Positions 10,161 through 13,160 of a stretch of DNA of 42,251 bases are shown here, one piece after another (position 1 is the stretch's first letter; each line of letters begins with the position of its first letter). The notes beneath the pieces were generated by a model. That model saw only the letters and a program-made list of their open reading frames with translations, was not told the DNA's origin and did no database searches. Position numbers and translations under genes: made by a program. This DNA is from Minisyncoccota bacterium (GTDB lineage Bacteria > Patescibacteriota > Minisyncoccia > Phycocordibacterales > PALSA-1337), in contig JAGOVB010000004.1 in NCBI GenBank assembly GCA_018060945.1, positions 1 to 42,251 on the forward strand. The letters are read 5' to 3'.

Positions 10161-11075
10161 CTAAACGATGCTTTCTACTTCTCTTTCGATCGTGAGCCCA
10201 GTCTTTTCAAAGACTACACCTTCTATCTTTTTTGCAAAGTCATCCACCTCTTTTGCACTTGCTCCGCCATGGTTTACGATTACTAGTGCCTGGTTCTTGT
10301 AGGTACCTACATTTCCGATTTTAAAATCTTTCATCCCACAAATTTTATCGATGATGAATGCAAGAGAGACTTTTTCTGTTTTTTCATCTACTGGATACTT
10401 TGGTAAATCTGGATAGTTTATCGAACCTATTGGTACGATTGGATTTTTGAAAAAAGAGCCAGCGGTTCCTAAGATATGCCAGTCAGGCAGTTTTTCTTTT
10501 CGGATCTTGATCACTGCGTCACGAATCTCTTGTGGTGTTTTTAAACCCTCTAGTCCTTTGTAACTCGTATTTATCTCATTTGTAAAATTGAACTCAACAT
10601 GAGTGATGATCCACTGTTTTTCTCTTTTAAAAATACTGTTGCGATAGCTAAACTGGCACTCTTCTTTTGTAAAAATACGTTCTTCGAGTGTGTCAGCATT
10701 GAGGGTATGCACCTTTTCGATTCTGTCTTTGACCTCGACACCATATGCTCCGATATTTTGAACAGGTGCAGCACCGATAGTCCCTGGGATATATGAAAGA
10801 TTTTCTAGTCCATACTTGCCTTCGGCAACACACTTTGCGACAAAATCATCCCAGTTATCGCCGGCATTGCTGATATTCATCTTTATAACTAAACCATCAT
10901 AGTCACCCATCAAGATATTTGAGCCACCGCCGAGGATAAAAAACTTTTTATTTGCTTTCAAAGCTTCTTTTAATTCTTCCACAGTACTAACCTCGCAAAA
11001 AAACCGTGCAGTTCCGCCGGTCTTGAATGTCGTATATGGGATGAGCGAAACGTTTTCTTGAATTTTTATACTCAT
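10161..11075 (-). CDS. murB: UDP-N-acetylmuramate dehydrogenase
   Basis: LGGGSNIL, IPGTIGAAPVQNIGAYG, FSYRNSIFK, AGSFFKNP, LVIVNHGGA. Confidence 0.96.
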   Translation of the reverse strand: MSIKIQENVSLIPYTTFKTGGTARFFCEVSTVEELKEALKANKKFFILGGGSNILMGDYDGLVIKMNISNAGDNWDDFVAKCVAEGKYGLENLSYIPGTIGAAPVQNIGAYGVEVKDRIEKVHTLNADTLEERIFTKEECQFSYRNSIFKREKQWIITHVEFNFTNEINTSYKGLEGLKTPQEIRDAVIKIRKEKLPDWHILGTAGSFFKNPIVPIGSINYPDLPKYPVDEKTEKVSLAFIIDKICGMKDFKIGNVGTYKNQALVIVNHGGASAKEVDDFAKKIEGVVFEKTGLTIEREVESIV

Positions 11076-11140
11076 TGATGGCCGTCGGGTGTGAGCTCCA
11101 AATAATGTCTAATTAAAATGTGAGTACAGCCGACAGCCAT
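11072..11140 (-). CDS. Candidate 22-aa leader peptide (uORF) MAVGCTHILIRHYLELTPDGHQ
   Basis: ATG at 11140; its TGA overlaps the murB ATG as ATGA. It lies entirely within the leader hairpin. No homology evidence. Confidence 0.3.
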   Translation of the reverse strand: MAVGCTHILIRHYLELTPDGHQ

Positions 11141-11141
11141 C
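11077..11141 (-). promoter_or_regulatory. Long leader hairpin abutting the murB start codon
   Basis: Minus strand GATGGCTGTCGG (11141-11130) pairs with CCGACGGCCATC (11088-11077): 12 bp with one G-U that favours the minus strand. The stem ends 1 nt before the ATG. Confidence 0.7.
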
Positions 11142-11159
11142 GATAAGTACAACAAAAAT

Positions 11160-11168
11160 AGTATACCA
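11160..11168 (-). promoter_or_regulatory. Extended -10 promoter for murB
   Basis: TGGTATACT on the minus strand, just downstream of a terminator. Confidence 0.55.
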
Positions 11169-11186
11169 TATACCGAAACGCTGCCC

Positions 11187-11265
11187 AAAAATGCAAAGTC
11201 CCGCCGAGACGGGACGCTTGCATAGACATTATTACTTGGGCTCAACAGATTGTTGTGCTCACACC
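11187..11265 (-). ncRNA. Candidate ~80 nt small RNA with an intrinsic terminator
   Basis: TATAAT at 11276-11271; internal hairpin CAACA-ATC-TGTTG; terminator ATGCAA-GC-GTCCCG-TCTCGG-CGGGAC-T-TTGCAT then TTTT; no ORF; complementary to the murB leader. Confidence 0.55.
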
Positions 11266-11282
11266 AAGATATTATACACCCA

Positions 11283-13160
11283 CTATTTGTTTTGTATAGG
11301 GTTTTTCTTTATGTAATCTATCACAAAACCGTATAGCTTCTGCGCCTCTGGATAGTTTGGGTCTAGATCAAGTGCTTTTTTTGCATTATCGAGCCCACTT
11401 TTATAATCATTTTTATTTAACCCATTGATTGAAAGCTCGAGCAATGGTAACTGCTTGTTTGGGGTGAGTTCATGAGCTTTTTGGAGCAATGGTGACGCTA
11501 GATCAAAAGCACCCATATGATTGTAAAATGACCCACCAAATAGATATCCTCGAGCATCGAGTGGTGCGTACTGTATCTGTTGAGTGATAGCTTGCTGAGC
11601 GAGGATAAAGAAGTCTTGTTTGATTTCTTTTACATCAGTTTTTTTGATAGTACCCTCTGCATTTTGAATAATTTGTTCACGAGCCTCTTGAGAACCCGTC
11701 ACATTGTATGACATAGCTTTCAAATACATCTCGATATTCTTTTTGTACCCTTCTGGGTGCTGACGGAATCCATCGATAATAGCAGTTCCCACACGAATAG
11801 GGACAATACTAGTAAAGTACAGCAAGGCTCCTGAAATAATGATAATTATTGGGGTGACGATAAGATCGCGTACGTCGATATTTATCGTGTATTTATTTAT
11901 ATACTCTTTTGCAGTCTGTGTGTGAAGAAAAGCGAGAAGACTAAAGAAAAGAATGTAGCTTGAGATATTGTCGAACACCGTCATGTTGTGAACTGCATAA
12001 GCTGCTAGTATTCCAACTAATACTGCTTTTTCTTTTAGAGTAAAATCTCCTTTCCATATAGCTCGCAATGCGAGGATGTAGAGTAAAATGTATGCCAAGA
12101 ATCCGAGTAGCCCAGCTGCGATAAACCAGTCGAGGAACACATTGTGTGCTCGATCAAACCACGCCTCTTCTGTCCACATTTTTGGATTGTAGAACTTGTT
12201 AAAGACATAGTTGAAACCATCCTGACCGTATCCAAGAATAGGTTTTTCTTTTATACCCTCTATCGCAATCGGCCAAATATATTTTGCACGCGGATTATCT
12301 AGAAGCTTTTTTACAGAAAGACTCTGTGCTACGCGATTTAGTGTATTGCTATTTTTAACAAAACTAGTTTCTTGTGCAATATATAGTGTTGTCACTGAGA
12401 CAACTACTAACGCGATCACCGCGAACGCTATTCTTCTACCCACGAGGTCTCCTTTGGCCTTCCATGCATAGAGCACTGAAGCGATAAAGAGTCCCACGCC
12501 GATACCGATGATTGTTCCTCGTGTCGCTGTCTTGTAAATGATAAATAATTGCAAAAGAATAACAATACTGTATGTCATATGTGCCCAGACATGTTTACTT
12601 CGCTCTATCCAGACATACAAAGCCAAGCCTATGCTCAAGAGCATATACACCGCAAGATACGCAGCATTTCCCAAAGTTCCGTCGAGTCGATCAGACCCTT
12701 GGCGAATATCGATCGCTCCACCCAACTGGAAGAGTCCATATATGGCGATGATTACTGATACTCCGATAGATGTATTCATCCAGTGATACCAATATTTTTT
12801 TATCATTATTCCTGACGCGACAAAGAAATACATCCAAAGATGAAGGATCATAAAGAATCCTTCCATACGCTCAAAGTTTGACCAAAAGCTCTTGTGAGGA
12901 TTGATACCAAATGAATCTGCTAAGAATGCAACTGTCAGTAAACCAAAAACTGCGAGAGAAATCCAAGATTTCTTTGGACGATACTCTGGATCCCTAACTG
13001 CAAGGATGAGATAAGTAGCAAAAATAATATCGACTACAATTCTAAAGAAAAAAGCTTTTCCAGTGATGAATGGAAAAAGTAAAGATGAAGATATGATAAG
13101 CGGTGTAAAAGGTACTAAAAAAATCCCCGCAATCGTCACCCATTTAAGTATTTTATTCAT
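11283..13160 (-). CDS. O-antigen ligase-like (Wzy_C) membrane oligosaccharyltransferase with C-terminal TPRs
   Basis: About 12 TMs; RLDGTLGNAAYLA, TATRGT, GYGQDGF, RAHNVFLD; TPR-like AKKALDLDPNYPEA. Confidence 0.88.
   Translation of the reverse strand: MNKILKWVTIAGIFLVPFTPLIISSSLLFPFITGKAFFFRIVVDIIFATYLILAVRDPEYRPKKSWISLAVFGLLTVAFLADSFGINPHKSFWSNFERMEGFFMILHLWMYFFVASGIMIKKYWYHWMNTSIGVSVIIAIYGLFQLGGAIDIRQGSDRLDGTLGNAAYLAVYMLLSIGLALYVWIERSKHVWAHMTYSIVILLQLFIIYKTATRGTIIGIGVGLFIASVLYAWKAKGDLVGRRIAFAVIALVVVSVTTLYIAQETSFVKNSNTLNRVAQSLSVKKLLDNPRAKYIWPIAIEGIKEKPILGYGQDGFNYVFNKFYNPKMWTEEAWFDRAHNVFLDWFIAAGLLGFLAYILLYILALRAIWKGDFTLKEKAVLVGILAAYAVHNMTVFDNISSYILFFSLLAFLHTQTAKEYINKYTINIDVRDLIVTPIIIIISGALLYFTSIVPIRVGTAIIDGFRQHPEGYKKNIEMYLKAMSYNVTGSQEAREQIIQNAEGTIKKTDVKEIKQDFFILAQQAITQQIQYAPLDARGYLFGGSFYNHMGAFDLASPLLQKAHELTPNKQLPLLELSINGLNKNDYKSGLDNAKKALDLDPNYPEAQKLYGFVIDYIKKNPIQNK

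Follow-up and report, generated by a model that had tools for sequence, protein, structure and literature searches.

A predicted trans-acting pair of co-evolving RNAs upstream of murB in one order of the Candidate Phyla Radiation

Background

The spacer upstream of murB in a Minisyncoccota bacterium (GenBank assembly GCA_018060945.1, contig JAGOVB010000004.1, positions 1 to 42,251 of the forward strand; this stretch of 42,251 nucleotides is called the window, and positions refer to it) carries on its minus strand a predicted small RNA (sRNA) of about 80 nt, here called sRNA1, followed by a long hairpin, here called RNA2, which is the 5' leader of murB in this genome. Comparison with related genomes leaves us highly confident that the two form a genuine trans-acting pair whose complementarity has co-evolved. 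To our knowledge, almost nothing is known of RNA-based regulation in the Candidate Phyla Radiation (CPR; Patescibacteria), because most of its members are uncultivated.

Several well-described systems resemble parts of this arrangement. OxyS and fhlA form a two-site kissing complex in which both sites are needed for stability, and OxyS represses by covering the ribosome-binding site; the present pair would likewise form two short, separate helices between loop or linker segments of structured RNAs, but neither site touches the start region, and the host lacks initiation led by a Shine-Dalgarno (SD) sequence. In IstR-1/tisB, OhsC/shoB and Zor/Orz, type I antitoxin sRNAs are encoded beside their targets rather than opposite them, the targets have a long structured 5' region that is processed before translation, and the short complementarity must co-evolve. 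A dedicated sRNA adjoining a single target, short co-evolving complementarity and a long structured 5' region are found here also, whereas there is no toxin open reading frame (ORF), the hairpin is linked to murB or to no gene at all, and the pair occurs in single copy and is fixed across an order. The sRNAs DsrA, RprA and ArcZ (on rpoS) and GlmZ (on glmS, a cell-wall precursor gene) open the ribosome-binding site by pairing with the stem strand that blocks it; an inhibitory leader hairpin and an sRNA directed at the leader are shared features, but the pairing sites of sRNA1 are apical, and co-folding keeps the basal stem closed.

CopA/CopT and RNA I/RNA II of plasmids are cis-antisense systems, perfectly complementary by construction, in which recognition begins with loop-first kissing and RNase III can cleave the duplex. 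Loop-first recognition that grows into a larger complex on a structured leader may apply here too, in a pair that is, unlike those, trans-encoded and chromosomal. In Escherichia coli, RNase III removes an inhibitory 5' hairpin from adhE, and at ssrS-ygfA a stable RNA is co-transcribed with a downstream ORF; these are precedents for a blocking leader hairpin that may need cutting and for the release of a stable sRNA from an mRNA 5' end by processing, but they have no partner sRNA, and processing at the present locus is only predicted. A system with murB itself as a target is PmaR of Agrobacterium tumefaciens, an sRNA that binds murB's 5' untranslated region (UTR) and stabilises the mRNA, with a positive effect, and that also binds the ampC 5' UTR (PMC6234868). 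PmaR has many targets, and its binding to murB is very weak (KD about 700 uM; PMC6234868). Both are trans-acting sRNAs directed at a murB 5' UTR, as predicted here from the sequence, but PmaR is encoded elsewhere and unrelated in sequence, whereas the partner of sRNA1 is a dedicated, co-evolving hairpin that exists also without murB.

A first-pass annotation of the locus, made from the DNA letters alone, had stated that no such element was known for murB; no description of the pair itself was found in the literature searched, but PmaR does bind a murB 5' UTR. The RNA family is new and belongs to a known kind, that of a base-pairing sRNA dedicated to a structured partner. The pair is unusual in three ways: its two helices cross on a hairpin that serves as a leader in part of the genomes and stands free in the rest, its host is without SD-led initiation, and it is fixed across an order.

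Results and Discussion

Layout of the locus

The features of the locus are given below in their order along the minus strand, with the upstream neighbour last; R1 (RNA2) and R2 (sRNA1) are covariance models made from alignments of 24 and 19 sequences, respectively.

11293-11298, minus strand: TATACA, a -35-like hexamer of the sRNA1 promoter that lies within the 3' end of the Wzy_C gene; TATACA-16-TATAAT scores 10/12 in the promoter scan
11271-11276, minus strand: -10 box TATAAT of sRNA1, from sequence and promoter scan
11184-11265, minus strand: sRNA1, about 80 nt, consisting of a 5' a-box, a hairpin P1, a single-stranded b-box and an intrinsic terminator; model R2, 71 bits, E = 3e-13
11257-11265, minus strand: a-box GGUGUGAGC, the sRNA1 5' end, which pairs with RNA2 box 1 (one mismatch here) or box 3 (perfect)
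11237-11261, minus strand: sRNA1 P1 hairpin in the minimum-free-energy fold; double changes at 6/6 P1 pairs in relatives
11223-11243, minus strand: b-box GAGCCCAAGUAAUAAUGUCUA, core 11233-11223, whose partner is the RNA2 apical loop plus UUGG; cognate duplex -14.3 kcal/mol
11187-11222, minus strand: intrinsic terminator of sRNA1 (stem 11222-11192 plus U-tract), from fold, terminator scan and covariation
11160-11168, minus strand: extended -10 box TGGTATACT of the RNA2/murB promoter; the scan finds TGGGCA-16-TATACT with an upstream TG
11066-11152, minus strand: RNA2, an 87-nt long hairpin, the murB 5' leader here; model R1, 92 bits sense, 34 antisense
11152-11143/11075-11066, 11141-11130/11088-11077 and 11129-11089, minus strand: P1, P2 and the apical region of RNA2, from the fold
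11119-11127, minus strand: box 1 (a') GUACUCACA, to which the sRNA1 5' end is predicted to bind; CUCACA within it pairs with UGGAG in free RNA2
11101-11111, minus strand: b' UAGACAUUAUU in the RNA2 apical loop, from inverted-repeat and cognate-duplex analysis
11088-11102, minus strand: UUUGGAG, then box 3 GCUCACACC; UUGGAG is invariant in relatives
10161-11075, minus strand: murB, 304 aa (Pfam MurB_C and FAD_binding_4), with its AUG (11075-11073) paired inside RNA2 P1
11283-13160, minus strand: upstream neighbour, a gene for a Wzy_C (O-antigen-ligase-like) membrane protein, from the domain match; the same neighbour is found in many relatives

The first-pass annotation had listed both promoters, the terminator and two exact complementary blocks, and all of its elements lie on the minus strand where it had placed them. 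The blocks are a 9-nt complement, GGUGUGAGC (11265-11257) against GCUCACACC (11096-11088; inverted repeat I7), and an 11-nt complement, AAUAAUGUCUA (11233-11223) against UAGACAUUAUU (11111-11101; inverted repeat I4). Of 2000 dinucleotide-shuffled versions of the 209-nt spacer, 7 (0.35%) contain an exact complementary block of at least 11 nt, and the folding of the 226-nt spacer has z = -5.2 relative to shuffles; the decisive support for the locus is comparative rather than statistical, both units and their complementarity recurring in more than 100 genomes.

The hairpin had been described as 65 nt long, with a 12-bp stem that ends 1 nt before the murB ATG. Such a stem is present (P2, 12 bp, its 3' end 1 nt short of the ATG at 11075), but the hairpin is longer, with an additional 10-bp helix (P1, the counterpart of the basal helix P1 of relatives) that holds the AUG; it is, as had been proposed, the murB leader in this genome, and it pairs the start codon. 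No Rfam 15 family matches positions 10700-11700 on either strand (cmscan, E up to 10), where only miRNA-type hairpin noise far below gathering scores was returned. No second copy of RNA2 was found in the 629-kb, 33-contig assembly, the sole extra match being an antisense echo of the same hairpin.

Conservation and distribution of the two RNAs

The RNA2 hairpin measures about 90-100 nt, and its basal stem about 20 bp. Its stems have compensatory double changes at 17 of 27 pairs, with 95% of cells paired, and none of 500 shuffles scored as high; when the 3' partners were slid by 1-3 columns as a control, the pairing collapsed. Since RNA2 scores 65-100 bits in the sense orientation and only 33-42 bits in the antisense orientation, its strand is fixed. 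P1 and the terminator of sRNA1 together have double changes at 17 of 20 pairs, values that 0 of 500 shuffles reached.

An order-wide survey of 301 genomes from more than 110 families, with strict filters, found RNA2 in 207 and sRNA1 in 177 genomes. When fetched loci were scored with laxer filters, sRNA1 accompanied RNA2 in 119 of 120 RNA2 genomes, the sole exception being at a contig end. In a phylum-wide sample of 401 genomes, RNA2 was found only in the order of the window (the window genome and 6 of 7 others sampled), apart from one weak match of 39 bits in the same class. Thus, judged from genome sequences, the pair is an order-specific, essentially obligatory, single-copy feature of one order of Paceibacteria within the CPR. 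Genomes in which covariance models confirmed both RNAs include Parcubacteria GW2011_GWA1_40_21 and metagenome-assembled genomes of Candidatus Kaiserbacteria and Candidatus Paceibacterota.

Both units are present in both same-genus genomes. One of these (G001) is near-identical to the window; in the other (G002) MurB is 73% identical to that of the window and the hairpin apex is almost unchanged, with a difference that is matched upstream (AGAC/GUCU in the window, UGAC/GUCA in G002). Most of the other genera and families sampled also have sRNA1 and RNA2 upstream of murB. Unlinked extra copies of sRNA1 were noted in two genomes (G070:C3:71393-71475 and G105:C13:2732-2820; loci L085 and L087), both of which have the usual tandem copy as well.

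The upstream unit had been proposed as a transcribed sRNA of about 80 nt, and its conserved promoter and covarying terminator argue for this. A -10-like box stands at a fixed distance from it in 116 of 121 genomes, and in 73 of 121 a -35 hexamer (at least 5/6 of TTGACA) lies 31-34 nt upstream of the model start; from this fixed spacing the transcription start is predicted at (U)GUGAG, so that the a-box would be the extreme 5' end. RNA2 is preceded in relatives by TATAAT- or TATACT-like boxes 6-17 nt ahead of the hairpin base. By its signatures of promoter and terminator, sRNA1 is an independent small RNA gene, with transcription predicted.

Arrangement of the two genes

The arrangement of the two genes was compared in the 119 genomes with both. 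In 100 they share a strand and are in tandem, separated by a median of 42 nt, in 9 they are divergent or more than 700 nt apart (with divergent orientation in 7 genomes), and in 10 they are in separately fetched loci, on other contigs or kilobases apart. The inserts between the units vary and reach 200-700 nt. Because 19 of the 119 genomes have the two genes divergent, distant or in separately fetched loci, a single read-through transcript with two alternative folds, which the first-pass annotation had offered as a second explanation, fails as a general mechanism. In one genome (G037, locus L024) sRNA1 and RNA2 are separated by the insertion of a large near-perfect palindrome, about 200 nt long (acccccacgccaactttggcat ... 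atgccaaagttggcgtggggg).

Co-evolution of the intermolecular helices

Two helices between the RNAs are predicted. Helix b has 13-19 bp, usually with one internal loop or bulge, and forms between the sRNA1 linker just ahead of the terminator and a stretch of RNA2 made up of the apical loop and the UUUGG after it. Among 110 non-identical pairs, cognate partners average -14.5 kcal/mol and non-cognate partners -10.2 kcal/mol, and 0 of 10,000 permutations of partners gave as low a value. For the 50 pairs with a core other than the commonest one, AAUGUCU/AGACAUU, the corresponding energies are -14.4 and -8.2 kcal/mol, and the cognate partner has a median rank of 1 of 110. The core AAUGUCU/AGACAUU is replaced on both sides by AAUGACU/AGUCAUU, GUUGUCA/UGACAAC, AAACAUC/GAUGUUU, AAUGCC/GGCAUU or AAUGUAU/AUACAUU, and further matched cores are CAAAGUAAACAUC/GAUGUUUACUUUG and ACACAAAUGCC/GGCAUUUGUGU.

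Helix a joins the sRNA1 5' end (GUGAGUGC-like) to RNA2 box 1 (GCACUCAC) over 8-9 bp. In an anchored alignment of 70 distinct rows, double changes are found at 8 of 10 pairs, which 0 of 500 shuffles equalled, and the paired fraction falls from 88% to 19-60% in slid controls. Matched changes include AUGAGUGC/GCACUCAU, GUAAGUGC/GCACUUAC, ACGAGUG/CACUCGU and GUGAGCG/CGCUCAC, and both G-U intermediates (GUGAG/CUCAU) and completed changes (AUGAG/CUCAU) are found. Conservation and covariation of the complementarity, which had been set as the test of the proposal, are thus seen for both helices.

The order is a then b in sRNA1 and a' then b' in RNA2, so that the two helices cross in the manner of a kissing or pseudoknot-like complex. 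The sRNA1 5' end had originally been matched to the 3' arm of the hairpin. That match, to box 3 (GCUCACACC), is a second, perfect and nested site in the genus of the window and a few relatives (-18.9 kcal/mol for the a-box of the window, against -12.0 for box 1), in which pairing reaches just the top base pair of the 12-bp stem in the genus of the window; most relatives, however, pair box 1, on the 5' side of the apical region. Base pairing of box 3 (GCUAAC) with the 3' arm of sRNA1 P1, as a possible third helix, fits some genomes and not others on inspection and was set aside. Unbound RNA2 has a helix of two invariant segments, CUCACA of box 1 and UGGAG, which closes the loop that presents b'; these pairs never vary, so that covariation is silent for or against them.

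Translational setting of murB

Where the locus could be assessed, murB directly follows RNA2 in 89 of 117 cases, and in the 84 loci with a placeable start its ATG is a median of 12 nt (interquartile range about 6-32) past the last paired base, without an SD-like motif. In the window and in G002 the AUG is within the basal helix P1, which covaries between these two genomes. Across the whole assembly, a -10-like hexamer ends exactly 6 nt ahead of the ATG in 80 of 514 long ORFs, a sharp peak, and SD-like tetramers show no enrichment (37 of 514 long ORFs). The 16S rRNA 3' end (contig C27, 61252 onward) reads ...GGAUUAUUUCAAUUU and is without the CCUCC anti-SD. Thus the genome shows, in its sequence signatures, a strong leaderless promoter pattern and no SD-led initiation. 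With the leaderless signature, neither SD nor anti-SD, and the AUG in a very stable hairpin, murB departs from this pattern and should be untranslatable until the hairpin is removed or remodelled.

A candidate for such removal is encoded: contig C16 has an RNase III gene (a 238-aa open frame with the NERLEFLGDA signature and a dsRNA-binding domain), and both the basal stem (about 20 bp) and the b duplex (13-19 bp) are plausible RNase III substrates. Two beta-CASP (RNase J-like) ORFs were noted on contigs C10 and C25.

Proposed mechanism

The comparison shows the structures of both RNAs, that they occur together, in a single order and as separate genes, and that both intermolecular helices co-evolve; how pairing proceeds, whether RNase III takes part and what happens to murB we infer as follows. 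The b-box of sRNA1 would seed on the RNA2 loop b' (13-19 bp) and extend into UUUGG, and helix b would displace the apical CUCACA:UGGAG helix of RNA2. The sRNA1 5' end would then capture the freed box 1 (a with a', 8-9 bp), and the outcome would be a two-site crossing complex of the kissing type with the basal stem intact. Because helix b enters UUUGG and helix a takes box 1, full binding must replace the apical helix. Binding of sRNA1 would decide the processing of the RNA2-murB transcript, for example by the encoded RNase III, and hence its translation or stability, with an effect in either direction. We lean slightly towards this account, in which two separate small-RNA genes act on each other in trans and sRNA1 controls the fate of the RNA2-murB transcript in the window genome; control of murB transcript fate in this genome by the pair, taken as a claim of its own, seems to us evenly balanced.

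The loop-seeded strand exchange suggested by the first-pass annotation is consistent with pairing of b and then a, but is confined to the apex. Its extension to an anti-antisense activator that unlocks the murB start finds no support, as the sites are apical (11127-11096) and the AUG stays paired in co-folding, a calculation that cannot represent kissing contacts; direct freeing of the start codon by the pair appears quite improbable.

A variant of the mechanism is that RNA2 is a removable cap: sRNA1 would dock at its apex and gate its excision, for example by RNase III, to give a leaderless murB mRNA and a stable RNA2 with a second role. We consider this rather unlikely; if true, it would be an sRNA-gated switch from a leadered to a leaderless mRNA, a form of control of which we know of no description.

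Several observations weigh against murB control as the purpose of the pair. The first-pass annotation took the hairpin to be a murB leader, and this does not hold in general: RNA2 is free-standing in 28 of 117 loci, often with an intrinsic terminator of its own, and the RNA2-sRNA1 pair is kept in genomes where no murB was found (for example G032 and G038). RNA2 that stands alone pairs as well as RNA2 with murB (helix b, -15.6 and -14.2 kcal/mol; helix a, -15.3 and -15.7 kcal/mol), and in one genome (G066) murB is situated between the two RNA genes. Because pairing is kept equally without murB, and in murB-negative genomes also, murB control in cis cannot be the core function of this pair. Pairing with sRNA1 does not account for several invariant nucleotides of RNA2 (GGAG; basal UUGU...GCAA). 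In co-folding, by a nearest-neighbour method that cannot represent kissing (loop-to-partner) contacts (as duplex folding cannot either), the murB AUG of the window stays paired with a probability of about 1 with or without sRNA1, so that a translational effect would need a nuclease or helicase step. Thus the genome comparison indicates that the pair has a role independent of its attachment to murB, though murB is usually fused to RNA2.

A search for other targets of sRNA1 in the genome gave none that was convincing in a two-seed scan, 8- and 9-mers of b' occurred at random expectation, and a genome-wide duplex-energy scan was swamped by long imperfect duplexes. The sequence CUCACAGACAUUAU at 1825-1812 on the minus strand, within chance expectation, joins an a'-like 6-mer directly to a 9-nt match to b'; no complete ORF of at least 120 aa is listed there, and an ORF running off the left end of the window is possible.

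Alternative explanations

The strongest rival, to which we give a real though less than even chance, is that RNA2 is mainly a stand-alone functional small RNA, such as an order-specific ribonucleoprotein RNA or a sponge, with sRNA1 as its dedicated partner or regulator; murB would only share the RNA2 promoter in most lineages and be released by processing at the hairpin base, so that the system would not be a murB switch. The loci in which RNA2 has its own terminator or no murB after it fit this well, as RNA2 keeps its conservation there (83-90 bits) and its pairing energy is unchanged, and so do its presence in genomes without detectable murB and the invariant nucleotides left over after RNA-RNA pairing. 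In several loci with long spacers, inspection by eye also suggests that a terminator follows RNA2 and that murB has a -10 box of its own, 6-9 nt ahead of the ATG; a looser count of murB promoter boxes gave 11 of 21 long and 18 of 63 short spacers, and discriminates poorly in AT-rich spacers. However, no protein partner or function can be named for such an RNA, restriction to one order misfits a universal housekeeping role, and the murB ATG abuts the hairpin in about three-quarters of genomes and is buried in the genus of the window, which suggests that coupling to murB is under selection.

The account in which sRNA1 controls the RNA2-murB transcript in trans has also to be set against two cis-acting explanations. 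The first is that an upstream ORF of 22 codons (AUG at 11140 to UGA at 11072, with an AUGA overlap with the murB start) is translated, unwinds the hairpin and couples ribosomes into murB, the hairpin being conserved as coding sequence. Such an ORF is present in the window, and termination-reinitiation would suit an organism without SD-led initiation, but the frame is not conserved (G002 has a 1-nt indel in the loop, and other genera have a stop after 8-10 codons or no AUG), and the substitutions are those of an RNA stem, with G-U intermediates and compensatory pairs. We regard this explanation as very improbable, although the 22-codon ORF of the window may matter locally.

The second is a cis switch in which a single sRNA1-RNA2-murB read-through transcript adopts alternative folds. 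The prevailing tandem arrangement with its short gap agrees with this, and read-through of the terminator is possible in principle. Both elements would then always be on one transcript, whereas the complementarity is kept in the genomes with divergent or separately fetched genes, a conserved promoter precedes RNA2, a strong terminator follows sRNA1, and the inserts between the units are variable and sometimes long. As a general mechanism such a switch is contradicted by these genomes, and we give it slighter credence still; it could contribute in this genome if read-through dominates.

A decayed inverted duplication, a remnant of a miniature inverted-repeat transposable element (the fallback of the first-pass annotation) or functionless chance complementarity has a practically negligible probability, since the element is single-copy in the genome and is found in at least 207 genomes of more than 100 families with covarying stems and intermolecular helices, although a block of the observed length is, at the frequency seen in spacer shuffles, not impossible over a 42-kb window.

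Other identities considered and further observations

As a single-copy hairpin of about 100 nt beside secA, which is downstream of murB at the window locus, RNA2 was considered as a signal recognition particle (SRP) RNA and rejected: its apex is without domain IV motifs or a GNRA tetraloop, and SRP RNA and Ffh/FtsY went undetected in this genome. RF00169 and RF01854 had no match anywhere when 21 genomes of the order were scanned, no SRP54 M domain was found, and the assembly of the window (G000), which is 89% complete, had no SRP-type GTPase domain and no DTAGR motif in any frame; SRP components were also at zero in a 151-genome sample of the phylum, a count that the search prefilter may explain. 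A search for 6S RNA (RF00013) gave nothing above cut-off in 21 genomes, with a control that found 6S RNA in just 5 of 14 known genomes; RNA2, at only about 100 nt, is shorter than 6S RNA, whose hairpin has a central bubble and measures about 180 nt. A type I toxin-antitoxin system was rejected as there is no conserved ORF in RNA2, the frames and stops differing between genera.

Perfect DnaA boxes (TTATCCACA) were noted in AT-rich spacers just upstream of secA (loci L040, L048, L057, L010, L024, L026 and L027), which in some loci lie between free-standing RNA2 and secA and in others downstream of murB. These spacers may be an oriC-like region, as judged from the boxes. No cluster of DnaA boxes was found near the locus in the window.

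Conclusions

The comparative support for this RNA pair is unusually clear, with more than 100 independent genomes and covariation both within and between the two RNAs. Co-evolution identifies the binding partner, so that compensatory mutants allow a direct test of the interaction in vitro without cultivation of the organism. The pair is fixed in one order and is located at a gene of peptidoglycan-precursor synthesis, and it raises the question of how a leadered, structured mRNA is translated in a cell that has no anti-SD and whose genes carry a leaderless signature.

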